DNA of 64,000 bases from a virus: UHGV virus genome UHGV-0275551, one strand, 5' to 3'. Every line of letters begins with the position of its first letter. The stretch's first letter is position 1. Made by a program: the position numbers and the translations under genes. The notes below the pieces were generated by a model. That model was not told where the DNA came from and ran no database searches. It was given only the letters and a program-made list of their open reading frames with translations. This document shows, in pieces, positions 7,698 through 50,506 of the stretch.

Positions 7698-7922
7698 ATG
7701 ATTAAGACACCTGTACCAATTTTTGGATTTCCTTCTATAGAAGAGTTTAAAGTTTATCTTGACAAAAACTTCTACAATGAGCAGCCTGTTACTTTGCTGA
7801 AGAGTGACTTATCAGAGCTTCTTGATATGATTATCAAGGCAACTTCTGAGAAGGAACCTGAACAGAAAGCTGAGAAGAAGACTAGTAAGAAATCCGATAA
7901 GAAGACTGAAAAGTCTGAGTAA
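7698..7922 (+). CDS. hypothetical protein (K/E-rich C-terminus)
   Basis: 74-aa ORF. Confidence 0.45.
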   Translation: MIKTPVPIFGFPSIEEFKVYLDKNFYNEQPVTLLKSDLSELLDMIIKATSEKEPEQKAEKKTSKKSDKKTEKSE

Positions 7923-7974
7923 TAACTTAGGGGTTACTTGATAGCCCCTTTGTAGAAACTTAGAAGGTAGCGAA

Positions 7975-8397
7975 ATGAAAGAGCTTATTGGTAAAAGATT
8001 GACAGTTTACTGCTCTAAAACAAAGAAACCACTCACTTCTGTGAAGGTTTTTGATGTTGACACCACTGGTGTAGAGTACCCAATCCAATGCACAATAATT
8101 ACTCCATTCAATGCAGATGATATGGATTTTAAAGAGTGTGAAGTGATATCTTTTAATGCTGATGGGTATTGGAGAGGTAAGTTAAACAAGCAATCAAAAG
8201 ATTTTGATATGCAAATCCTTATCAATGAAGGCTATATCTGTGTAAAAGATATCCTCGTAGAAGCCTATGAAGAAGGTATAATTGATATTGTGCATGATGT
8301 TGAAAAAGCTTTAAAGCTTGTTATGCCGCATTTAGAATCTGGAAAGCTGACTTTAGAGATGCTTAATAGGGTTATTCGGAGAGCTTATGAAAATTAA
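7975..8397 (+). CDS. hypothetical protein
   Basis: 140-aa ORF. Confidence 0.5.
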   Translation: MKELIGKRLTVYCSKTKKPLTSVKVFDVDTTGVEYPIQCTIITPFNADDMDFKECEVISFNADGYWRGKLNKQSKDFDMQILINEGYICVKDILVEAYEEGIIDIVHDVEKALKLVMPHLESGKLTLEMLNRVIRRAYEN

Positions 8398-8851
8398 AGA
8401 AACAGTTCGAAAAGCAATGCTTACCAATTCAACTAAAGATGAAATGTACAAAGAAATCTGTGATGAGTTGAATTGCTCAAGACATGCTGCTAAGGTTCTT
8501 GTACATTGTTTTATCTGGGAATGTTCAGAAGCTTATATGAGATTCAGAGCTTTTGAAAGTTCTAACTTACTAGGTGATGTAGAAGCTAGTGAGAAGCTAA
8601 AAGAACCTGAAGTGAAAACAGTCCCTAAAGTTGGTAATACATACCCTCTTAAAGACTTCAAGACTGGAAAGATTGTTGCAAAAGGTGTAGTAGAATCTGT
8701 TTATCATGATGGTAAATACTTACTTAAAATATTCGAGTATGACAGCCACTATACGCACTTATGTGGGATTACATTCTTAGTAACAGAAGAAGACATTATT
8801 AGGAACAATAGCAACAAGTTTGCAGTACCAGCTTACCAAGTTTTACGATAG
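8387..8851 (+). CDS. hypothetical protein
   Basis: 154-aa ORF. Confidence 0.5.
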   Translation: MKIKETVRKAMLTNSTKDEMYKEICDELNCSRHAAKVLVHCFIWECSEAYMRFRAFESSNLLGDVEASEKLKEPEVKTVPKVGNTYPLKDFKTGKIVAKGVVESVYHDGKYLLKIFEYDSHYTHLCGITFLVTEEDIIRNNSNKFAVPAYQVLR

Positions 8852-8864
8852 TGGTGTGATAGAT

Positions 8865-9413
8865 ATGGAAAAAGATAACTTAAAAGACGTTGAAGGTAAC
8901 TATCTAGTCCTTGACTGGAAGGATGTTCGGGAAGCACTCTCCGAAGAAAATCTTGACTGGTTCGAACAAATTATCTTTGCAGTACGGCATAACCGAGAAG
9001 TTGAAAATGGTAAAGAGCCACTTGAAGGAATCTTTGTAGAAAGGTCTTATCCGTTCTATGAAGACACTTTGCAGAAAGTTAAGATGTACTTTAAACAGAA
9101 GAACCGTAAAGTGGTCACTATGGTGTCTCTTGGTGGACAGAGTATGTCTGTGATGGAAGATATCAACCCTAAGAGACCGAGTAAAGGTGTTTGTATAAAA
9201 ATCACAGGACATGAAGAGTATATCTCAGTGGATGACTTTAGTGCATTCTGTAATGGGTCTTGTGTCTTTAATGGTTTTCACTATGATATCCGAGTATACC
9301 CAATCAAGGGAGATGATATCATGATGCAGATATTCGATAACAACAACGGATTCACTCATTTTTATCAGACAACTAAGTCATCCCTTAAAACAGTTCTGGA
9401 AACACTGATTTAA
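8865..9413 (+). CDS. hypothetical protein
   Basis: Track start TTG 8820; first ATG at 8865 after previous stop. Confidence 0.5.
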   Translation: MEKDNLKDVEGNYLVLDWKDVREALSEENLDWFEQIIFAVRHNREVENGKEPLEGIFVERSYPFYEDTLQKVKMYFKQKNRKVVTMVSLGGQSMSVMEDINPKRPSKGVCIKITGHEEYISVDDFSAFCNGSCVFNGFHYDIRVYPIKGDDIMMQIFDNNNGFTHFYQTTKSSLKTVLETLI

Positions 9414-9423
9414 AATATCTTAA

Positions 9424-9455
9424 GAGCCTCCTTAATCGGGGGCTTTTTAATTTTT
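9424..9455 (+). terminator. rho-independent terminator ending the plus-strand block
   Basis: AGCCUCC-uuaauc-GGGGGCU (one G-U pair) followed by UUUUUAAUUUUU. Confidence 0.6.
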
Positions 9456-10104
9456 ATAAAATTTTATCGGTTGTCCCAACCTCTGGGTCACCATCATATG
9501 TGAATAAAATATCTATCCTTCTTAACAACCTCCTTAGTCTTACTCTCTATATAGTTATATAGTACTATATAGTATCTTAGTAACTATCTAGTGGTCTTAA
9601 TAGCCCCCCTGTATAAGCCTTCTAACTAGCCCTTTAATAAGCCCTCTAAACACTCTTCTAACAAGCCTTCTTAACAACCTATACAATCACCTTAACCATC
9701 TCTCTATACCCTCTTAGAAGCTCCTATACACCTCTTAATCTCTATGTCAGCTATGATACCCTCTATAGATGTTCACTAGGTACTACTAAGCCTCTATATA
9801 GACTGTTTTAACAAACTTAACAGGAATATCTTCACAGACCTTATCTCACAAGGTCTAACACGGTACTAACAAGGTATCTTATAAGCCTGTTTCTACCTGT
9901 ATTTTTAAAAGACTGTATAGGTAATTATTCAGAATTTTAAAATTTTTATAAAATAAGACTATCAAGTCATTTTTTAGGGTCTTTGAAGGAACTCAAAAAT
10001 ATCTGTAGAAGATGTATATCTGCTTGGTAGCCCTTAACAACTCCCTTACAAGTACTTTGCAAAATTTTAAAATATCCTTAACAATCTCTTAACAGTTCTC
10101 ACAA

Positions 10105-10176
10105 GCTCTTAACAACTCTTCAAAGCTCTTAACAACTCTTCAAAGCTCTTAACAACTCTTCAAAGCTCTTAACAGA
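10105..10176. repeat. perfect 20-bp tandem repeat (GCTCTTAACAACTCTTCAAA) x3 plus a partial fourth copy
   Basis: Read directly at 10105-10124, 10125-10144, 10145-10164. Confidence 0.9.
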
Positions 10177-11058
10177 TTCTTAACAGAACTAACAAGGATG
10201 TAACAGTTTCTTAACAGTTGATACATAGGCTTTACAGAATCTTAACAGATGACTAACAAGAGCTAACAAGTTAATTTTTAAGAGTTATTTTGTAGGGATA
10301 ATTAACAAGTTCCTAACAAGTGTTTAATCTTTTTAACAAGCTATTAACATGGTCACTATCTCTTTTCTTATCGTTCCCTTTCCCTCTTAGTGATTCTCTA
10401 AATAGCCCTCTTAAAAGCTCTCTATAGCTCCTTGTAAGCTCTTTTAAGTCTCTTCCTAGTAATTACACCCCAACTATACAGACACCTCTTTATAGGGCTT
10501 TACAGAGGCTTTAAAGGCTATGCTAAAGACTCTTACAAGGCTTTTACGTGGTCTTAACAGAGATTTAACAAGGGGCTAACAAGTCTCTAACAAGTGCCTT
10601 AAAAGCATAACTATGTAGGGATTGTTAAGAAATTGTTAAGAAAATGTTAAGGGGGCTAGCATTTACGTAACTTTATAGCCTCTTTTACGTAACTTTTGAG
10701 TAACTTTATAGCCCCTATAACATACTTTAAAGGAACTACCAAGCCCTTTTTAGTAGTTCACAAGAATACTAACGAGATGATAAAGCTTACACCCTTATAA
10801 GATTCTTCTAAGGCTCTGGGAAGCTCTATAAAGGGCTTTTTAGAGTGGGTTAATATGATTGCTTAAGTTAGGTTGATAAGGCTGTTATAGAGCGTTATAG
10901 AGCGTTTAAGGGGTTGCCCTTCCCTTTCGGGTTATGGGCTTATATTTAAGTTGATTTGATAAAAGGTTATAGAGTAGACTATAGAGTTATTGCTTTTAAG
11001 GTCTGATAAGATTCTGGAAAGGGAAGGGAAAGGGTTGTATAAGGATTTGATAGACGTA

Positions 11059-11105
11059 AAAAAGCCCCATTTAAGGGGCTGTAAAGGTATCTGGGGCTAT
11101 TTAGC
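11059..11105 (-). terminator. terminator hairpins ending the minus-strand small-gene cluster
   Basis: On minus strand AGCCCC-uuaaau-GGGGCU followed by UUUUUU; second hairpin GGGGC-tattta-GCCCC adjacent. Confidence 0.6.
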
Positions 11106-11118
11106 CCCGTTGCGTCGA

Positions 11119-11367
11119 TTAGTTGTAGCCTTGTTTGCTGTAGTATAGAGAGACAATCAAGTCACCCCAATAATGGTAGTGAGATTCCTCGTTTATGGCT
11201 TCTTTTACGGCATCTTTCCAGAAGTCATCAGTAGGGTTATAATCTGGTATCACCTGCTGAATCAGCATTTTGATAAGGTCAAAGGTGTTATCTGTTCCAC
11301 CGATATCGAATTTTGCATCAAGTTTGTGGCAGCCATAAGCATTAACAGTTACGCGGATAGTTGACAT
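11119..11367 (-). CDS. hypothetical protein
   Basis: 82-aa ORF immediately downstream of a type-A cassette. Confidence 0.55.
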   Translation of the reverse strand: MSTIRVTVNAYGCHKLDAKFDIGGTDNTFDLIKMLIQQVIPDYNPTDDFWKDAVKEAINEESHYHYWGDLIVSLYYSKQGYN

Positions 11368-11434
11368 AATTTAGATTCTCCAGTTTAGGACTTTGTTTAG
11401 TGGGAAGGTCATTCCCTCCCCGTTGATTAGTAAT
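11368..11434 (-). promoter_or_regulatory. type-A promoter/leader cassette
   Basis: TTGCAA-N17-TAAATT, leader hairpin (GGGGAGGGAATGACCTTCCCC family), SD, then ATG. Confidence 0.6.
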
Positions 11435-11698
11435 TTACTGCATATTGGCGTAGGTTGCAAGCCTTTTTTCGTTGTATTTTGTCAGAATTTCACAAGATAG
11501 AACATCGTACATTGTAACCGCTTTGCTTTTGTCGAGGTCAAAAAAGCCAAATGCTTTACCATCTTTGAATCCGACAACTTCGTAAGATTCTTTAATGATT
11601 TCACCATTGAACAAATCACTTTCGATACGGTGAAACAACGCTACGTCTTCTTTGTTAGTTGCAATCTGCAATAGTGTGGTTAATTCTACGTGTTCCAT
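11435..11698 (-). CDS. hypothetical protein
   Basis: Track ORF runs in-frame through the cassette; likely start is the ATG right after the conserved SD (MEHVELTT...). Confidence 0.55.
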   Translation of the reverse strand: MEHVELTTLLQIATNKEDVALFHRIESDLFNGEIIKESYEVVGFKDGKAFGFFDLDKSKAVTMYDVLSCEILTKYNEKRLATYANMQ

Positions 11699-11800
11699 TT
11701 TTGAATCTCCTAGTTTAAGGACTTTACTTAGTGGGAAGGTTAATCCCTCCCCGTTGATTGACAATTTACAGACTTTTGATTGTCTCGTCAATATCTTTTT
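11699..11800 (-). promoter_or_regulatory. type-A promoter/leader cassette
   Basis: TTGACG-N17-TAAATT; leader hairpin; SD TAGGAG. Confidence 0.6.
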
Positions 11801-12296
11801 CAATATCTTTTAAAGTTTTTTCTAAGTTCTTGATATTGAAGGATAAGCCTTCACCGAGAGTCTTAGAATAACCGCTAGGACGTAAATCATAAAGGCAAAT
11901 TTGTTCTACATTGGAGAGGTTGACCATTTCACCGCTTACATCATAAGCTATTGATACGGTGTTTTCAGGGGCTTTATAGAACTTGTTAAGATTCTTGATA
12001 GAACGTTCATAAGCCATTTTATAACCATTTAAAAGGTCTTTAACGTGGTTGCGAACGTTTTTACACTCATCTAAGTAAATACCTAAGAATAGCGGTAACA
12101 GTTCTGCTACAGCTTGCATAAAGTGAGATACTACAACAGTAGAAACATTACGACGATGTATATAATAAGCCCCGTTTTCTGATTTAGTGATAGTTGCAAA
12201 GTGTACACCGTTGCAACGAAATTCGAAGGTATCTTTAACGGGTTTAGTCATAACGTTAGATGAGCGAATGTAGTTGATAGCTTGAAACTTGTTCAT
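11766..12296 (-). CDS. hypothetical protein
   Basis: 176-aa ORF starting right after a type-A cassette. Confidence 0.6.
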   Translation of the reverse strand: MNKFQAINYIRSSNVMTKPVKDTFEFRCNGVHFATITKSENGAYYIHRRNVSTVVVSHFMQAVAELLPLFLGIYLDECKNVRNHVKDLLNGYKMAYERSIKNLNKFYKAPENTVSIAYDVSGEMVNLSNVEQICLYDLRPSGYSKTLGEGLSFNIKNLEKTLKDIEKDIDETIKSL

Positions 12297-12400
12297 TTTG
12301 AATCTCCTAGTTTAAGGACTTTACTTAGTGGGGAAGGTCATTCCCTCCCCGTTGATTAGTACTATACTTGTTTTGATTTGCCTTTGCAAGCAATTTTTAA
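12297..12400 (-). promoter_or_regulatory. type-A promoter/leader cassette
   Basis: TTGCAA-N17-TATAGT; leader hairpin; SD. Confidence 0.55.
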
Positions 12401-12516
12401 GTTTATCTATAAAGAATCTATTAAGTGAATCCCTTTTAGATAACCCCCTCGAACAAAGTTACCAATGTCAATGGGTATTGTCAACACTTTTTTAAAAGTT
12501 TTTTGTAAGTTATTGA

Positions 12517-12858
12517 TTAACTTATGAATATTTTTTCAGGCTTTACATAGCTGATACGCTGACTTTTTAGCAGGTCATCCCAGATTAAAGCGGCAATATG
12601 TGCATAACCGGATTCACGTAAAAGCTTCATTGTTTTACTTCTCGTTTCAAAACGGCTTGCGTAGTATTCACTGTTCAAGGTCGTTTTATTCCCTTCGTTA
12701 TCTGTATGGATGATTTGCATCACTTGAAAGGGGCTTACACCCTCGCCTTTGTTCCACTGTTCAAAGTATTTTAGGCACTGCATAGGTGACATCTTATCAC
12801 TTACTTGAGTTGACCAAGATGAGCCAGCTTTATCGGTAATTACGGTTACATAAGCCAT
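12517..12858 (-). CDS. hypothetical protein
   Basis: 113-aa ORF after a type-B cassette. Confidence 0.6.
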   Translation of the reverse strand: MAYVTVITDKAGSSWSTQVSDKMSPMQCLKYFEQWNKGEGVSPFQVMQIIHTDNEGNKTTLNSEYYASRFETRSKTMKLLRESGYAHIAALIWDDLLKSQRISYVKPEKIFIS

Positions 12859-12943
12859 TTTAGAATCTCCAGTTTAGGATTTAGTGGTAAAGCTCTTTAT
12901 CTGGGGCTTACTATACAGACTAATAAGCCCCATGTAAAGTACT
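12859..12943 (-). promoter_or_regulatory. type-B promoter cassette
   Basis: TTTACA-N17-TATAGT with inverted repeat GGGGCTTA/TAAGCCCC flanking the -10; conserved leader; SD GGAG. Confidence 0.6.
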
Positions 12944-13192
12944 TTAAGCGTCTTTATATTCTATCTCTGTGCACTCACCTTTTACTAGCTCAAAGGTCCA
13001 AATAATTCGTTTATACTCAATCACTACTACAGTAACAAGGTCAGTCCTCTTCTCATTGGTTTTAAAGTCTATTGTGTGGGTATACTCATAACTAGTCTTA
13101 TCCTTAATTTCCCCGTAGCGTCTACACTCTTTATAGACTTCATCCATTAAGCCATTGCTAACCATGTTTTTTAGTTGAGTTTTAGTATACAT
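12944..13192 (-). CDS. hypothetical protein
   Basis: 82-aa ORF after a type-A cassette. Confidence 0.55.
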   Translation of the reverse strand: MYTKTQLKNMVSNGLMDEVYKECRRYGEIKDKTSYEYTHTIDFKTNEKRTDLVTVVVIEYKRIIWTFELVKGECTEIEYKDA

Positions 13193-13285
13193 TTTTTGGA
13201 ATCTCCTAGTTTAAGGACTTTACTTAGTGGGGAAGGTCATTCCCTCCCCGTTGATTGATAATTTACAGACTTTTATCAGGCTTGT
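13193..13285 (-). promoter_or_regulatory. type-A promoter/leader cassette
   Basis: TAGACA-N17-TAAATT; leader hairpin; SD. Confidence 0.55.
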
Positions 13286-13519
13286 CTAGTCTTTTTCAAT
13301 GATAATTTCATATTGACCATCGACACTGTCGAAATAGATTCCTTCGTCATCTTCTGTCTTAAAGTAACATTGTATATCATCACTGGCGGGGTAGTCTTGT
13401 CTTGCTATCTGGCAAACTTGAATAGCATTTTCTTTACTTCCTGTAAACTCTTCAAGCCCTTTAAAGTCACATGAATGGCCGTTACAAATGGAAAGGATGA
13501 GATAAATGGTTGTAAGCAT
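13286..13519 (-). CDS. hypothetical protein
   Basis: 77-aa ORF; preceded by hairpin CCCCT-gtaa-AGGGG plus U-run rather than a typed cassette. Confidence 0.5.
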   Translation of the reverse strand: MLTTIYLILSICNGHSCDFKGLEEFTGSKENAIQVCQIARQDYPASDDIQCYFKTEDDEGIYFDSVDGQYEIIIEKD

Positions 13520-13585
13520 GATTTAAGCCCTCTAAAAGCCCCTGTAAGGGGTTAATCAGTGTTTATAAGGTGAATGTATAGGTTT

Positions 13586-14128
13586 TTAGAAAAAGACCTT
13601 TAAATCACTCTCTACAATGTTTTCTGTCAGTGTATCCATGATGTCACAAAAAACCTGAATACTGTCGGATTGTTGGATACTTTTAGCAAGTAGCTCCAAT
13701 GTTTCATCAAGATAATTTAAATTTGGGTTATCCAGTGAAGGGAGACAAAAAGGTGAATACATAGCGTTGAACTCTGTTGTATAGACCTTTTTAATCCAAT
13801 TTACATCAAAGTACTCTGTAAAGCTTGCTATATTTGACACGTTATCACAAGAATAATCATCATTTAGCTCATCCTCTGGAATGTCAAGTTCTAAGATAAC
13901 AATATTTTGAGTTTTCATCTGAAAAGCTGCCGTGATAGTGGCATTTCCTAGAGCTTGCTGGATACCTTCCGATGCTATCTCTTCCTCATCATCACCATAG
14001 AGTTTATTTTCTGGGTACACGTAAAAATTGCCGTCCATATCCGAACAATTCCATACACCTGATGGTTTATCACCGTTATTAATCAGGTTGATAAAGTTTT
14101 CTTGAGTAGTACCGTGAAAGCATTTCAT
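13586..14128 (-). CDS. hypothetical protein
   Basis: 180-aa ORF after a type-B cassette. Confidence 0.6.
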   Translation of the reverse strand: MKCFHGTTQENFINLINNGDKPSGVWNCSDMDGNFYVYPENKLYGDDEEEIASEGIQQALGNATITAAFQMKTQNIVILELDIPEDELNDDYSCDNVSNIASFTEYFDVNWIKKVYTTEFNAMYSPFCLPSLDNPNLNYLDETLELLAKSIQQSDSIQVFCDIMDTLTENIVESDLKVFF

Positions 14129-14221
14129 TTTGAATCTCCTAGTTTAAGGATTTAGTGGTAAAGCTCTTTATCTGGGGCTTACTTTATCGAACTATAAGCC
14201 CCTTGTAAAGTACTTTATCAG
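14129..14221 (-). promoter_or_regulatory. type-B promoter cassette
   Basis: TTTACA-N17-TAAAGT; inverted repeat GGGGCTTA/TAAGCCCC; SD. Confidence 0.6.
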
Positions 14222-14419
14222 TTAATTTTTGACAACTTTTAAAACTGCAAGATAACCTAAGCAATAAGAATCACCGAAGAGAGTTCTACCCATGAAAGAA
14301 TCATCTTTGATATCCTTTGCAGTGACTGTTTTTTCTACGCCGTGGGAAAGAACTACATCACCAACTTTAATGTCTTTGATGTGCGTGGTTTCAATGGTTA
14401 AACCGTTGATAATAGCCAT
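14222..14419 (-). CDS. hypothetical protein
   Basis: 65-aa ORF after a type-A cassette. Confidence 0.5.
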   Translation of the reverse strand: MAIINGLTIETTHIKDIKVGDVVLSHGVEKTVTAKDIKDDSFMGRTLFGDSYCLGYLAVLKVVKN

Positions 14420-14520
14420 TTTGAATCTCCTAGTTTAAGGACTTTACTTAGTGGGGAAGGTCATTCCCTCCCCGTTGATGTGTAATTTAATCTATCTAAA
14501 AATCAGTGTCAATAAAATTT
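14420..14520 (-). promoter_or_regulatory. type-A promoter/leader cassette
   Basis: TTGACA-N17-TAAATT; leader hairpin; SD; about 95 nt near-identical to 15284-15372. Confidence 0.65.
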
Positions 14521-14925
14521 TTAGAGTTCTGCATAAATTGCGTCGCAGATGTCACGAAAGTCATGATTTGCCAAATTACGTTGTAACCAAGTGGCAAAGA
14601 AATCAGCGATTGCAAAATTAGCATCATACTCAACAGATAGCCACACTTTCACGGCAAATCTAAACATTTTCAAGTCTAACTCTTTATTCATTACCTTAGA
14701 TTTGCCTAACATGTCGACCATTTCATATTGTGCACCGTCTAGCGTGATACCTGCTGCAACGTCAGCCAATGAGTTTTTTACGTTTTCAACGTCTAAGATA
14801 ACGCTTTGAATCTTTCCGATAATGTTGTGCAATGTTTCATCCGGTGCTGATGATGTAATAACATTGATTCGATTAACGGTTAAACGTGCTTTTAAGATTG
14901 ACAACTCACGATTATTAATAGCCAT
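14521..14925 (-). CDS. hypothetical protein
   Basis: 134-aa ORF after a type-B cassette. Confidence 0.6.
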   Translation of the reverse strand: MAINNRELSILKARLTVNRINVITSSAPDETLHNIIGKIQSVILDVENVKNSLADVAAGITLDGAQYEMVDMLGKSKVMNKELDLKMFRFAVKVWLSVEYDANFAIADFFATWLQRNLANHDFRDICDAIYAEL

Positions 14926-15010
14926 TTTAGAATCTCCAATTTAGGATTGAGTGGTAAAGCTCTTTATCTGGGGCTTACTGTACAGACTTATAAGCCCCCT
15001 GTAAAGTACT
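14926..15010 (-). promoter_or_regulatory. type-B promoter cassette
   Basis: TTTACA-N17-TACAGT; inverted repeat; SD. Confidence 0.6.
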
Positions 15011-15283
15011 TTATACTAAGTGCAATTTTTTACCTTTTACTATAATGTAACTCGATGTGCTATTGCTGCAAACATCCTGATAAATTCTGCGCAAACGTCC
15101 TTCATAGTATACTTTCCAGCTAGTTGGAATCTTTTTGCCGTATCCGGTAGCAGTTTTTTGGAGTCCTGCGAATTGCCAATCTAAGATATGTTGCTCAGCC
15201 TGTAAATCCTCAAAGTGCATCACACCGTCTACATAGTGACGTAGAGTGACATTTAAAGTGAGACCGTTGTTAGTAGTATACAT
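15011..15283 (-). CDS. hypothetical protein
   Basis: 90-aa ORF after a type-A cassette. Confidence 0.55.
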   Translation of the reverse strand: MYTTNNGLTLNVTLRHYVDGVMHFEDLQAEQHILDWQFAGLQKTATGYGKKIPTSWKVYYEGRLRRIYQDVCSNSTSSYIIVKGKKLHLV

Positions 15284-15372
15284 TTTAGAATCTCCTAGTT
15301 TAAGGACTTTATTTAGTAGGGTGGTTATTGCCTCCCCGTTGATGTGTAATTTAATCTATCTAAAAACCAGTG
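15284..15372 (-). promoter_or_regulatory. type-A promoter/leader cassette
   Basis: TTGACA-N17-TAAATT; variant leader hairpin; SD. Confidence 0.65.
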
Positions 15373-15705
15373 TCAACAGTTTTGTTTTCGTTTGCTCAAC
15401 TCTTGAACAATTACAGTATGATAGTCTTTTAAGTCACTAATATTTAAAGCATTTATCAGAGAATTATAATCATCGACTAATTGAAAATCATCTTTGAAAA
15501 TGTCGCTGATTTGATAAGCTCTCGCCCTGAATCTGAAGCTCATTTCTAACCGCTTTAATTGTTCATCGCTCAACCGCTCTAGAAAGCTCATTACAAGGCT
15601 ATTGCTAACCTGTTGTGTGATTGCCTTATTTGCTAGATTATAGGCTTTATATGCCTTATAGAGCGCGAAAATGGCAATGATTGCAGTGATACCAGTCATT
15701 AACAT
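15373..15705 (-). CDS. hypothetical membrane-anchored protein
   Basis: 110-aa ORF, hydrophobic N-terminus, SD AGGAAG; overlaps upstream gene. Confidence 0.55.
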   Translation of the reverse strand: MLMTGITAIIAIFALYKAYKAYNLANKAITQQVSNSLVMSFLERLSDEQLKRLEMSFRFRARAYQISDIFKDDFQLVDDYNSLINALNISDLKDYHTVIVQELSKRKQNC

Positions 15706-15995
15706 GGTGCTTCCTCTTTACGTGACACTTTGCCATTTACAGTTATCTCATAAGAATCTAGTAAATCGCTTTTAGATTTGACAGGACTTTTAAGAGTATC
15801 ATCATAGATATTGACTTGCAATACAGGTTTTTTATACTCCCTGCAACTATTCCATAAGCAAATCACTACACGACGACCTTTTATTTTGCCGTGTAACCAT
15901 TCCATAACATCATGGCTATTTCTTGATGTTTCAATGAAATCAATTTTGTTGAGTAATTTGCTTAGATTTTCACGAACTTTATTTGATAATTTCAT
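15699..15995 (-). CDS. hypothetical protein
   Basis: 98-aa ORF after a type-B cassette. Confidence 0.55.
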   Translation of the reverse strand: MKLSNKVRENLSKLLNKIDFIETSRNSHDVMEWLHGKIKGRRVVICLWNSCREYKKPVLQVNIYDDTLKSPVKSKSDLLDSYEITVNGKVSRKEEAPC

Positions 15996-16083
15996 TTTTG
16001 AATCTCCAGTTTAGGATTGAGTGGTAAAGCTCTTTATCTGGGGCTTAAGATACCAACTTTTAAGCCCCTTGTAAAGTACTTTA
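15996..16083 (-). promoter_or_regulatory. type-B promoter cassette
   Basis: TTTACA-N17-TATCTT; inverted repeat; SD. Confidence 0.55.
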
Positions 16084-16373
16084 TCAGTTAATTTTCAGCT
16101 TTGCATAACCTCTCATTGTACGAATTGGAGATGTTAAGGCTACGCGTCTAATATATGCCTTTTTTGTGTATACATTTGTCTTTCCGATAGTGTTTACACA
16201 TGTAAAAAGATTTATTGGTGAATTTTTTAACTTCAACTGTTTATCAGCCTTCACACCCCATCTTACAGCAGATTGTTTTCCGTTGTCAACCACTTTCCCG
16301 CCTAACTTTTCGCTATGATGCGAGCGTCATCACGAGTTTTTACAGGAATTACAACGTTTTTGATAGTAGCCAT
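16084..16373 (-). pseudogene. small ORF interrupted by an apparent -1 frameshift in a 4-nt homopolymer (possible sequencing error or pseudogene)
   Basis: ATG at 16373 after the cassette SD opens a 23-codon frame ending at TAG 16302-16304; the 69-aa track ORF 16084-16293 is open in the -1 frame back to 16326; one extra A in the run at 16307-16310 would fuse them. Confidence 0.4.
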
Positions 16374-16461
16374 TTTTGAATCTCCAATTTAGGATTTAGT
16401 GGTAAAGCTCTTTATCTGGGGCTTACTTTATCGAACTATAAGCCCCTTGTAAAGTACTTTA
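16374..16461 (-). promoter_or_regulatory. type-B promoter cassette
   Basis: Identical in its core to the 14129-14221 copy. Confidence 0.6.
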
Positions 16462-16842
16462 TCAGTTAATTTTGAAGATTGTTACATAACCATCACTACC
16501 GATGATTTGAGACACTCCAGCTTTTTCTACTTGATAGCCCATATTTTCAAGATGATAAACAGCATCATCGTAACCATATGCGCCACCCTGATAACGTCTC
16601 TTATCGCATCTTATCAGGTTTTTACCACGTCCAGCAAGTGCATGTAAAATGGCTTTTTCGCTTGAAAGAGTACCATCTAGCATTGTCGCCGTGTAATGGT
16701 TGATTTTATTCCCATTGATATCATACTTAAAATTAAACGAGTGAACAACAATAACGTTACCTTTAAAATTCTCATCAAGTGACTTCTCCAGTGCGTTGCG
16801 AAAGTTGTCTTTGTTGATGAATTTAGGTGCACGGTATGCCAT
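16462..16842 (-). CDS. hypothetical protein
   Basis: 126-aa ORF after a type-A cassette. Confidence 0.6.
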   Translation of the reverse strand: MAYRAPKFINKDNFRNALEKSLDENFKGNVIVVHSFNFKYDINGNKINHYTATMLDGTLSSEKAILHALAGRGKNLIRCDKRRYQGGAYGYDDAVYHLENMGYQVEKAGVSQIIGSDGYVTIFKIN

Positions 16843-16960
16843 TTTGAATCTCCAGTTTAGGACTTTATTTAGTGGGGAAGGTCATTACCTCCCCGTTGAT
16901 GCAAATACTAGATAACCCCGTTCAAAGAGTCAAGAAAAATTTTAAAAATATTTTTGGAAA
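16843..16960 (-). promoter_or_regulatory. type-A promoter/leader cassette (first of the cluster)
   Basis: TTGACT-N17-TAGTAT; leader hairpin; SD. Confidence 0.55.
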
Positions 16961-47550: not shown

Positions 47551-47722
47551 GTAAGCCTCTTTTAAGTAACTATTAAGTTTTAATCTTTTATCTTAACGTA
47601 TTCTATACGTTATACTTTAAAGCTTTTTAAAAGCTATTAAATAATCTTTTAAGAGTTTTAAAGTATCTGTATAGTTAAACTGTTAAGTAACCTTTTAAGT
47701 AAAACCCACTTCGCAAAGATTA

Positions 47723-47747
47723 ACACCTTGTCAAGTACATTGTCAAC
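47723..47747 (+). promoter_or_regulatory. conserved motif ACACCTTGTCAAGTACATTGTCAAC in the divergent promoter region; TATAAT at 47756-47761
   Basis: 24/25 identical to 1913-1937; precedes the first plus-strand gene by about 60 nt. Confidence 0.45.
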
Positions 47748-47806
47748 TTGCTTTTTATAATTTTTTGCAGTAATGTATGAGGTTAATGATTTTAGAGGGA
47801 GTAAAA

Positions 47807-50506
47807 ATGGAAAACGTAGATTTTAAAAACTTACATTTAGTTGGTGATACAGAAACTGATGGTTTACTCCTTGAGTTCACTAAAGTTCACGTAATGGCTT
47901 TCGCAGATTATAAATCTGACGATGAAGAGCCACCTGTATGGGTCTTTACAGATGAGCCTATCCTCGGTCACAAGTACACTAAGTACATTAAGGGTGGTTT
48001 ACGTGAAGGTGTTGAGTTTGCGTTAAAGGCAAAACGACTTTGTATCCATAACGGCCTCGGTTATGACTGGTGGGTCTTCAATCACATTGCACCGGATTTA
48101 TGGAACTTTGATAATCCAAAATGTAAGCCGTGGAGTAATTTCTTTCAGGATTCTCTTATCCAGTCTCGTGTTCAGTGGATGGATAGACCAACTCCAAAGG
48201 GTTATAAAGGTGCTCATGGTTTGGCTGCATGGGGTGCTCGTGTCGGTGTTCGTAAGCCAGAGATTGAGCATTGGGGTGTGTGGAATGCAGAAATCTTCAC
48301 TCGTGTTGTGGAAGATATCCGTATTAACGCCAAAACTAAACGCGCACTGGATAATGAGTATCTCAAGCTAAAGAAGTGTGGCATAGACACTTATGAAACC
48401 TATATGCGAGCTAAAGAAACATCTTTCTGGATGAGTCAACAAGCTATCAATGGTTGGAAAGCTGATAAAGAGCTTATGGAGTTCCATGTAAAGGAACTTG
48501 ACAAGTTGACTAATGAGCTTGCTTCAGAAGTTGAACCACATCTTCCTCCAACTATTAAGACCAAAGGTAAAGTCACTGGAGAAGAGTTTGCAAAAGCTTG
48601 GAATGAGTATGTTGAAGCATTTGGTCACGCAGATGGACTGAAGAGAATTACCAAGTACCCTAAGACAAAGTATCGTCAGCAGGTACGTAACGGTGAGATG
48701 CAGACATATGAAATCAAGCCATTTGGTAAGCCAACTACAAAGATTTTTAACATTGAAAAGAGAAATTGCTATACACCAACCAACTCTGTAACTGGTGAAG
48801 AGTACAAGGAGGGTTTTGTAGCAATGAAGGATGCTCGTGCAATTTGCAATGAGTTGAATGCAAAGATTGGTAAGAAATGCAAAGACTGGAAGCCAGTAAA
48901 AACAGTTAAAACTGTGAAGTACTATAACAGTCATGTTGTTAACCACTTTGAGCTTGAGTCAAGTCGCTACACAGGATTGATTGATGCACCATATACACCA
49001 ATTGAGTTTGAAGTTTCTCGTATGACTCAGGTAGCAGTTGTTAAAGACTACTTGAAATCAGTTGGTTGGATTCCAGATGACTGGAACTACAAGAAAGATT
49101 CAGACGGTCGCCCTGTCAAAGTTTGTCGTTTCAAAGACAACAAAAAGATGATTACAAAGCATCCTAAGTGGCAGGAGATGGTTGAACGGTGTGGGTTGAG
49201 TTATGTTGAACACGAAGGTGTCCAGTACATCGAACATAACTGGTCTGTGAAGAAGTACACGGATTTGCTTGAACCTTGCTTAATCCGTACTTCACCAAAA
49301 CTTACTGAATCTTCTTATGATACGATTGAAGGTGAGCTTGGACAGAAGATTGCTAAGTACTACACTTTGATGCACAGACGAAGAACTATTGAGAATTCAA
49401 AGGATGATGAAAAAGGTTGGTTGAACCAGATTCGTCCAGATGGTCGCCTTAGTGCTGGTGCAATGGTATTTGGTACTTCAACTGGACGTATGACACAATA
49501 TGGTATTGTAAACGTACCGTCTGGTGCTGCTGTCTATGGGGAACCAATGAGGGCAGTGTGGATTTGTGAAGAAGGTACTAATGTTGTCTCTGTAGACATG
49601 AACTCAGCCCAGCTAGTTCTCCTTTGTAACTTTATGGGTGACAAAGACTTCACCAAAGCGGTAACGCAAGGTAAAGAAGAGATTGAGTTTATTCGTCAAG
49701 AAGATGGACGCTATTACTGCAAACATTTTGATGAGTACCTAAACCCAGAGATTGATAAGTACCTTCGCTATGACTCTGAGAATGACCTGTACGTTGTCTA
49801 TTCAGGGACTGATGCACATACACTGAACAGTATTTACTTTAGCTTGAATGATGAGCAGGATATCTTGACTTGTCGAGCTACTCAGGATGAGAATCTTCTT
49901 CATGAGATTAGCAAAGGTCGTAAGAAAGCTAAGAATGGTATCTATGCACTGCTGTTCGGTGCAGGTGATGAGAAGTTTGCTAAGACAATTAAAGCTGCAA
50001 CTACTCAGGAAGGTGCACTGACTAAACAGACTTACTTTATTCGTTTGCCTAAAATTAAGAAGTTGCTAGATGACTTGGAAGCTGACTACAAAGCGACTAA
50101 AAAGGCACTTGAAGAGGTTTTTGGTAAGACCGCTGCAATCTCTAAAGGGGGATTTGTAAAGGTTGCTGGAGCTTGGTTGTGGTGTAAATCTCCACATAAG
50201 TTATTGAATTATTTGCTTATGGGTTCGGAGGCTCAGATTCAAAATGAGGCAATTAACCTTGCTTGTAGAAGAGCATGTGAAGAAGGGTTGACAAAATTAA
50301 ATGGACGAAAACCAGCAATCGGTGCTAGGCTTTTGCTGGCATACCACGATGAAAACAGTTGGGAATGCCCAGAGAGTATGACTCAAGAAGTTAAAACCAT
50401 AACTGACTGGATGTATGGTCAGGCATCTAAGAATTTAGGTTTGAAGAGTGAGACGCTTGTAACTGGCACAGGTAAGGTTGGTAAGAGCTGGTTGGAAGTG
50501 CATTGA
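47807..50506 (+). CDS. DNA polymerase, family A, with 3'-5' exonuclease domain
   Basis: Exo I motif VGDTETDGL; polymerase motifs KNGIYALLFGAG and LAYHDENSWECP; ATG 47807 with SD GAGGGAG. Confidence 0.9.
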   Translation: MENVDFKNLHLVGDTETDGLLLEFTKVHVMAFADYKSDDEEPPVWVFTDEPILGHKYTKYIKGGLREGVEFALKAKRLCIHNGLGYDWWVFNHIAPDLWNFDNPKCKPWSNFFQDSLIQSRVQWMDRPTPKGYKGAHGLAAWGARVGVRKPEIEHWGVWNAEIFTRVVEDIRINAKTKRALDNEYLKLKKCGIDTYETYMRAKETSFWMSQQAINGWKADKELMEFHVKELDKLTNELASEVEPHLPPTIKTKGKVTGEEFAKAWNEYVEAFGHADGLKRITKYPKTKYRQQVRNGEMQTYEIKPFGKPTTKIFNIEKRNCYTPTNSVTGEEYKEGFVAMKDARAICNELNAKIGKKCKDWKPVKTVKTVKYYNSHVVNHFELESSRYTGLIDAPYTPIEFEVSRMTQVAVVKDYLKSVGWIPDDWNYKKDSDGRPVKVCRFKDNKKMITKHPKWQEMVERCGLSYVEHEGVQYIEHNWSVKKYTDLLEPCLIRTSPKLTESSYDTIEGELGQKIAKYYTLMHRRRTIENSKDDEKGWLNQIRPDGRLSAGAMVFGTSTGRMTQYGIVNVPSGAAVYGEPMRAVWICEEGTNVVSVDMNSAQLVLLCNFMGDKDFTKAVTQGKEEIEFIRQEDGRYYCKHFDEYLNPEIDKYLRYDSENDLYVVYSGTDAHTLNSIYFSLNDEQDILTCRATQDENLLHEISKGRKKAKNGIYALLFGAGDEKFAKTIKAATTQEGALTKQTYFIRLPKIKKLLDDLEADYKATKKALEEVFGKTAAISKGGFVKVAGAWLWCKSPHKLLNYLLMGSEAQIQNEAINLACRRACEEGLTKLNGRKPAIGARLLLAYHDENSWECPESMTQEVKTITDWMYGQASKNLGLKSETLVTGTGKVGKSWLEVH

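Follow-up and report, generated by a model that had tools for sequence, protein, structure and literature searches.

The chromosome ends of Felix O1-like myophages have been studied in several isolates. In UAB_Phi87, a direct terminal repeat (DTR) of 608 bp was found by Bal31 digestion and run-off sequencing, with two discrete Bal31-sensitive fragments and a negative heat test for cos ends, and the terminases of UAB_Phi87 and Felix O1 form a DTR cluster of their own (PMC4837284). DTRs of 613 bp in Ro111lw (PMC6454146) and 581 bp in Pr103Blw (PMC8303462) were determined by PhageTerm, and short terminal repeats have been inferred for Felix O1 itself (PMC3185647). According to the accepted textbook model, DTRs are made by 3′ extension at staggered nicks (PMC5557969). 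The genome-end function of the region analyzed here is already known for the genus, including from experiments, and a read-start test has in effect been done by others, who placed the termini of relatives in this region with PhageTerm. The PhageMaP study of the Felixounavirus Bas63 targeted genes only, and therefore holds no fitness data for it. Descriptions of box arrays or of an inverted boundary motif, such as those presented below, were not found in the open-access literature searched, and both features appear to be undescribed, which makes them a modest but testable addition.

Results

The DNA analyzed here (the window) is a stretch of 64,000 nucleotides of the virus genome UHGV-0275551, which BLAST assigns to Felixounavirus, the Felix O1-like myophages. 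A T5-like terminal-repeat/injection-stop region, the first guess from the sequence, was dropped on this result. At 9414-11118, the window contains 1705 bp of non-coding DNA between two converging gene blocks, whose final ORFs are 8820-9413 on the plus strand and 11119-11367 on the minus strand, in agreement with the coordinates and the convergent position given in a preliminary description. Each block is closed by an intrinsic terminator that points into the gene-free region:

9422-9447, plus strand: intrinsic terminator of the plus-strand block, a 10-bp stem followed by a T run; a homologous terminator is annotated in ASO1A and Moogle.
11063-11080, minus strand: intrinsic terminator of the minus-strand block, a 6-bp GC stem followed by a T run; a terminator is annotated in ASO1A and Moogle.

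The earlier claim that no credible ORF lies here holds, with 42-56 stops in each of the six frames, a longest open stretch of 54 codons, and a longest ATG ORF of just 26 aa (start at about 10012) among those starting within the region. The top strand had also been described as G-poor and pyrimidine-skewed, which is right for about 9414-10550 but not for 10657-11118, which is G-rich: the GC skew is -0.30 in 9414-10025, -0.19 in 10026-10656 and +0.23 in 10657-11118, and amounts to just -0.107 for the entire region. An Rfam scan of 9200-11400 gave no significant family (best E value 0.29, far under its gathering score), and the search for tRNA and tmRNA genes was negative over the whole 64-kb window. 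Apart from the two terminators and a long-range complement of modest strength, the promoter, Rfam, tRNA and DNA-fold scans yielded nothing. Searches of PHROGs and Pfam with the six neighbouring genes returned only families of unknown function, and in a listing by length alone of the window's ORFs of at least 300 aa, none was identified as a terminase.

A match to the region was obtained in 257 phage records, with 80-92% identity; in 203 records it extends over 80% or more of the region. The records belong to Felix O1-like myophages whose hosts are Escherichia, Salmonella, Shigella and Citrobacter, and they leave the region without annotation, give it 'repeat_region' features or place it between predicted terminators. 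In an alignment of 12 genomes from three genera (Felixounavirus, Mooglevirus and Suspvirus), the conservation of the non-coding region is about 0.9-0.98 within the genus and about 0.5-0.9 against Mooglevirus and Suspvirus, with the exception, within the genus, of 10100-10149, where the window has extra 20-bp units. When measured by chunk-wise BLAST, the matched fraction within the genus is 0.89-0.91 for the region versus 0.58-0.78 for the flanking coding DNA, and across genera 0.70-0.74 versus 0.21-0.33, the last coding values being somewhat underestimated because the outermost chunks exceed the fetched flanks of the other-genus loci. The non-coding region is an island of conservation, better kept than the neighbouring genes. 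The genes beside the junction are mosaic, in contrast with this conserved island: at 7900-8350 and 11400-11650, several chunks of 150 nt lack a counterpart in close relatives, among them allfine, Felix O1 and UAB_Phi87.

The block of small minus-strand genes next to the junction harbours repeats of its own. A cassette of 46-105 nt is repeated six to seven times within 11365-16901, in the gaps between these genes (11365-11437, 11696-11768, 12293-12365, 13192-13264, 14416-14488, 15281-15353 and 16856-16901). On the coding strand, it shows a GC hairpin (GGGGAGGGAATGACCTTCCCC), then AGGAG and then the ATG of the next gene, an order which makes it look like a repeated leader with a ribosome-binding site, and a relation to the direct repeats that Whichard et al. 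listed between genes 15-21 of Felix O1 is probable. A second family, of 103-nt direct repeats with 79-90% identity, occupies the same block over 12856-16473 (copies at 12856, 14127, 14923, 15993 and 16371).

Physical ends could be transferred to the window from its relatives. Four linear records deposited independently by different laboratories carry exact direct repeats at both record ends, as detected by local BLAST: 580 bp in E9, 613 bp in Ro111lw, 613 bp in SeKF_63 and 579 bp in CRP22. All four repeats start with GCCCCCTTAACAT and end with GTTAAGGGCTACC, which correspond on the minus strand to positions 10656 and 10026 of the window, and the first 60 nt of SeKF_63 are identical to the window sequence at that boundary. 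At least seven further records open at the same base, the records that begin there number at least ten and come from several laboratories, and 27 extra copies of the DTR occur among 254 records. In phage SPT-1, two contigs break at the 10656 boundary, and positions 1-581 of Pr103Blw, annotated as a short direct terminal repeat, match the entire 10026-10656. The two boundary motifs alone reproduce the recorded repeat lengths in all four genomes and predict 631 bp for the window, which would therefore hold one collapsed copy of the repeat at 10026-10656. The DTR is thus placed by homology, from mapped relatives sharing 84-92% identity with the region, and would be single in the window because the assembly collapsed two copies. 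The features involved are as follows:

10026-10656, minus strand: equivalent of the direct terminal repeat, 631 bp, one copy, by homology to E9, Ro111lw, SeKF_63, CRP22, Pr103Blw and UAB_Phi87.
10012-10040, plus strand: right virion-end cut site, with GATGTATATCTGCTT before and GGTAGCCCTTAACA after the cut; 5′ end of the plus strand at 10026.
10621-10656, minus strand: left virion-end cut site, with TGTTAAGGGGGC before and TAGCATTTACG after the cut; 5′ end of the minus strand at 10656.
9460-10025, no strand: flank at the virion's left-end repeat, with a C-rich top strand.
10657-11060, no strand: flank at the virion's right-end repeat, with a G-rich top strand.

The virion orientation corresponds to the minus strand, with the chromosome start at 10656 and its end at 10026. 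A packaging site or physical genome terminus, one of the functions put forward in the preliminary description, is strongly supported by these data, as the ends of four relatives fall at 10656 and 10026 and the 608-bp repeat of UAB_Phi87 is homologous. E9, Ro111lw, SeKF_63 and CRP22 have the same sequence at both virion ends, as in the T7-type DTR class, and the fixed, non-permuted termini of this class are seen in the shared first base, the two Bal31-sensitive fragments of UAB_Phi87 and the conserved boundaries.

The published repeat of UAB_Phi87, AACATTTTCTTAACAA...GTTAAGGGCTACCAA, is homologous and lies 8 nt and 2 nt off the boundaries used here. This base-level comparison was taken from supplementary Figure S1; the GenBank record of UAB_Phi87 is not directly usable because it is not opened at the physical ends. 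The Bal31-sensitive SpeI fragments of this phage were reported as 2819 and 4322 bp versus 2751 and 4431 bp predicted from the present ends, an agreement only within about 70-110 bp, the length of the GenBank record differing from that of the paper. In the record of PC79-13 (OR687644.2, marked circular), a 127-bp 'repeat_region' at both ends misses the mapped DTR boundaries and is a probable assembly overlap.

Both boundaries are strongly conserved. The 29 nt around the right-end cut are identical in 12 genomes of three genera save for two single-base differences, and the left-end boundary, with AATGTTAAGGGGGC and TAGCATTTACGTAAC on its two sides, is near-invariant across three genera; GGTAGCCC and GCCCTTAACA at the right end, and TGTTAAGGGGGC at the left end, are each unique in the 64 kb. 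When read inward 5′ to 3′ from either virion end, the sequence is G(C/G)...CCC-TTAACA-N5-TTAACA, with TGCT(T/A) just outside each cut, so that the two cut sites would carry one motif in inverted copies, one on each strand. The boundary motif can be written as TGCTW^G followed by CCCTTAACA 6-8 nt inside. Next to either cut lie two or three boxes, oriented alike with respect to the end, and at the left end three inverted boxes (TGTTAAG) with a spacing of 11 bp run up to the boundary. The symmetry of the boundaries rests on short matches in a box-rich context, and the nick-site motif is provisional, since the cut positions obtained by run-off sequencing and those of PhageTerm-based records differ by 2-8 nt.

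The same layout is present in Kolesnikvirus (phages of Erwinia and Salmonella), where about 1.45 kb are gene-free and contain TCTTAACA arrays and inverted TGTTAA arrays. Similarity to the window region is only about 70%, over about 130 nt, and the right flank carries a different box (TTAGAAG). The boundaries homologous to those of the window coincide with record ends and enclose a repeat of about 440 bp.

The dozens of TAACA(A/G) motifs mentioned in the preliminary description amount to 27 on the plus strand (15.8 per kb versus 0.69 per kb in the remaining window), whereas the minus strand of the region has only 3; in 500 dinucleotide shuffles, the mean was 1.8 and the maximum 7. The tandem repeats named there were all recovered by TRF, and the region is the most repeat-dense part of the 64 kb, with 5 of the 8 TRF rows of score 60 or more. 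The repeats and boxes are the following:

9547-9574: tandem repeat, 10 bp x3 (TRF), TATATAGT three times.
10621-10651: tandem repeat, 11 bp x2.8 (TRF).
10662-10707: tandem repeat, 22 bp x2.1 (TRF), repeats of TTTACGTAAC(TTTATAGCC).
10884-10906: tandem repeat, 10 bp x2.3 (TRF), GTTATAGAGC twice.
10086-10174: largest tandem array, 20 bp x4.4 with 94% matches (TRF), not listed separately in the preliminary description.
10052-10075, no strand: two palindromes read from the sequence, TTTGCAAA and ATTTTAAAAT, which lie within the terminal repeat close to its edge.
10076-10340, plus strand: main array of 17 (C)TTAACA(A/G) boxes in a single orientation and in helical phase, containing the 20-bp array.
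10552-10594, plus strand: second group of four TAACA boxes with 11-bp spacing, three of the four kept across genera.

Most of the motifs (21 of 27) lie inside the terminal repeat and the other six in the flank 9460-10025. The boxes of the main array have a best period of 10.2 bp with a resultant length R = 0.91, and all 21 TAACA(A/G) of the DTR show the same period with R = 0.72, a value reached by none of 2000 random placements; this phasing puts the boxes on one face of the helix. Most boxes of the main array are kept in 8 of 8 Felixounavirus sequences and in two to three of the three sequences from other genera, and conservation is higher in the TAACA cores than elsewhere (0.986 versus 0.898 within the genus, 0.835 versus 0.736 across genera). 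The 20-bp unit CTCTTAACAACTCTTCAAAG is present in three near-perfect copies at 10086-10174 (4.4 by TRF) versus 0-1 in eleven relatives, and due to this expansion the predicted DTR is the longest among those compared (631 bp versus 569-614 bp). Regarding the palindromes at 10052-10075, they are conserved with a few substitutions in all 12 aligned genomes, and CTTTGCAAAAT is also found in the Erwinia phage Rouille.

The two flanks outside the repeat are conserved as well. The flank 9460-10025 contains TATATAGT x3, an array of 12/24-bp CCTTCTAAC units (9613-9680), CTCTATA boxes, six TAACA boxes and, at 9900-9999, an AT-rich block of 21% GC with palindromes, and its conservation is 0.9-0.98 among genomes of the genus and 0.5-0.9 in the comparison with Mooglevirus and Suspvirus. 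The flank 10657-11060 (0.8-0.95 within the genus, 0.65-0.9 across genera) contains the TTTACGTAAC(TTTATAGCC) repeats, GTTATAGAGC x2 and TATAGAG boxes, which run in the opposite orientation to the CTCTATA boxes of the first flank. It also holds the 12-bp long-range complement, between GCCCTTCCCTTT (10916-10928) and AAAGGGAAGGG (11017-11031), with a DNA fold z of -2.5. A third related copy of this complement lies at 10367-10385, inside the terminal repeat.

Discussion

The most likely interpretation, with a probability of about 0.85, is that the region is the concatemer junction, or genome end, of a Felixounavirus, and that 10026-10656 corresponds to a short, exact and non-permuted DTR, formed through staggered nicks and accompanied by a putative array of protein-binding boxes. 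The packaged chromosome would start at 10656, run down through 9414 and round the remaining genome, and end at 10026, so that the DTR would stand at both virion ends and only once in the assembly. The terminal gene blocks are transcribed outward and stop at their terminators, leaving about 570 and 400 bp of conserved non-coding DNA beside the DTR. Replicating concatemers would carry one DTR per junction, where the packaging enzyme would nick the plus strand before G10026 and the minus strand before the base at 10656. Both 3′ ends would then be extended with strand displacement, duplicating the DTR and giving a full copy to each daughter chromosome. The inverted motifs of the predicted cut sites, on opposite strands, fit the geometry of staggered nicks followed by 3′ extension.

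The helical phasing of the boxes suggests a protein-binding array, perhaps for the terminase. The approximately 24 phased TTAACA boxes of the DTR would be bound by a protein with sequence specificity, the likeliest being the recognition subunit of the terminase, and would serve to mark phage DNA and to position the nicks. A binding array for a phage protein, another of the functions first put forward, is plausible in this sense, as judged from the phasing, the conserved box cores and the presence of boxes at both cut sites. The nick-and-extend step by itself does not account for the strong conservation of both DTR flanks. A tentative extension, which we regard as possible rather than probable, is that the approximately 30 phased TTAACA boxes and the mirror arrays of CTCTATA and TATAGAG form an end-organising nucleoprotein structure common to the Ounavirinae, in which a phage protein, possibly the small terminase, would bridge cuts about 630 bp apart and set symmetric nicks. 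If true, it would be a recognition architecture undescribed for any DTR-packaging phage.

The same boxes could be read as an array for a protein unrelated to packaging, such as one that protects the ends or condenses the DNA, a nucleoid protein of the host attracted to phased AT-rich DNA, or the region 4 of sigma-70, for which they would act as a decoy. The phasing and the conservation of the boxes show selection on them and leave the binder unspecified, and for the decoy it counts that TTAACA is one base from the -35 hexamer TTGACA and that several boxes score as -35-like in the promoter scan. However, promoter-like sites are not significantly enriched (11 versus 6.5 ± 2.5) and none has a good -10. 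Moreover, boxes stand at a fixed distance of 6-8 nt from both cuts in mirror orientation, which ties them to the formation of the ends and makes such a role unlikely.

A replication origin, either instead of or besides the terminus, with the 20-bp units and TAACA boxes as iterons and 9900-9999 as the unwinding element, seems quite improbable. Direct repeats in helical phase, a block of 21% GC at 30-130 bp from the array and the strong conservation of the region all agree with it, and the phased repeats beside an AT-rich block have the form of an iteron origin, but an array for packaging recognition would be expected to show them just as well. The virion DNA ends map inside the array, which already explains the conservation and non-coding status of the region, and the number of 20-bp units varies freely (0-1 in relatives versus 3 here). 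There is a single DnaA-box-like site with one mismatch and no enrichment, and no initiator-like gene is adjacent, the neighbours being proteins without known domains. The GC skew, checked over the window, has a local cumulative maximum here instead of an origin-like minimum, which is found near 47.6 kb, but it follows gene orientation. The iteron origin proposed in the preliminary description was thus left without positive support. The cumulative minimum coincides with a 226-bp divergent junction at 47551-47776, between the long minus-strand block and an ORF of 909 aa (47777-50506), presumably a putative polymerase, and this skew minimum makes it a more conventional origin candidate than 9414-11118. 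An ORF of 663 aa near 47.6 kb corresponds by synteny to the primase/helicase of the UAB_Phi87 annotation.

Small proteins or a non-coding RNA as products of the region are very improbable. Some records annotate 'hypothetical proteins' of 30-50 aa here, and the 26-aa ATG ORF at about 10012 recurs in most Felixounavirus relatives, but it straddles the chromosome end, is absent from SeKF_63 and Sf13, and has no copy at the homologous position in Moogle, while every frame is saturated with stops because the boxes contain TAA. An RNA finds no Rfam match and no convincing internal promoter, the terminators point in from both sides, and DNA folding at both DTR boundaries is not better than that of shuffles. 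Finally, a headful pac or cos site, at which packaging would start and leave permuted or cohesive ends, is hardly conceivable in spite of the multiple short boxes that also surround the cleavage sites of P1 pac and lambda cosB, given that independent isolates have a common first and last base with exact repeats, and that UAB_Phi87 gave two discrete Bal31-sensitive fragments and a negative cos heat test; permuted or cohesive ends were not found in the relatives.

Reading the region as the genome end has practical consequences. The genome can be opened at its true ends, starting at 10656 on the minus strand and ending at 10026 with the repeat added, and the spurious calls of small ORFs in the region can be removed. 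The junction of the Felix O1 group is unusually legible, with near-invariant boundaries, inverted nick-site motifs and a long phased box array, and the poorly understood recognition step of DTR packaging could become testable in phages in wide use for the biocontrol of Salmonella and E. coli.

A last point is how this junction compares with known systems. Iteron origins, such as lambda ori or the RepA iterons of plasmids, share with it phased tandem direct repeats beside an AT-rich block, whereas here there is neither an initiator gene nor a cluster of DnaA boxes, the virion ends lie inside the array and the skew gives no mark of an origin. In P1 pac, seven TGATCA/G hexamers flank the cut, and lambda cosB combines R sites with IHF. 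The architecture is alike, with boxes of 6-7 bp that occur in many copies at intervals of about a helical turn and to either side of the cut, but those sites have 3-7 boxes and give headful-permuted or cohesive ends, whereas here there are about 30 putative binding sites and two cuts about 630 bp apart that would leave an exact repeat.

The junction of T7 and T3, with an exact DTR of 160 and 231 bp, cleavage sites and a terminase recognition element, also has a short, exact, non-permuted and non-coding DTR. Arrays of short repeats beside the DTR reportedly surround that junction, a further likeness to the region described here. Each junction likewise carries one copy, which staggered nicks with 3′ extension turn into two (PMC5557969). 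On the other hand, no sequence similarity was seen, the DTR here is about four times longer and belongs to a myovirus, no replication or transcription element was identified in this region, and the T7 promoters near the left end point inward whereas the terminal genes here point outward. The closest counterparts are the DTRs of other Felix O1-like phages (608 bp in UAB_Phi87, 613 bp in Ro111lw, 581 bp in Pr103Blw, and inferred in Felix O1), which are homologous at 84-92% identity and differ in length (569-614 bp versus the 631 bp predicted here), but have identical boundary motifs, share the box arrays and lie between the same pair of converging gene blocks.
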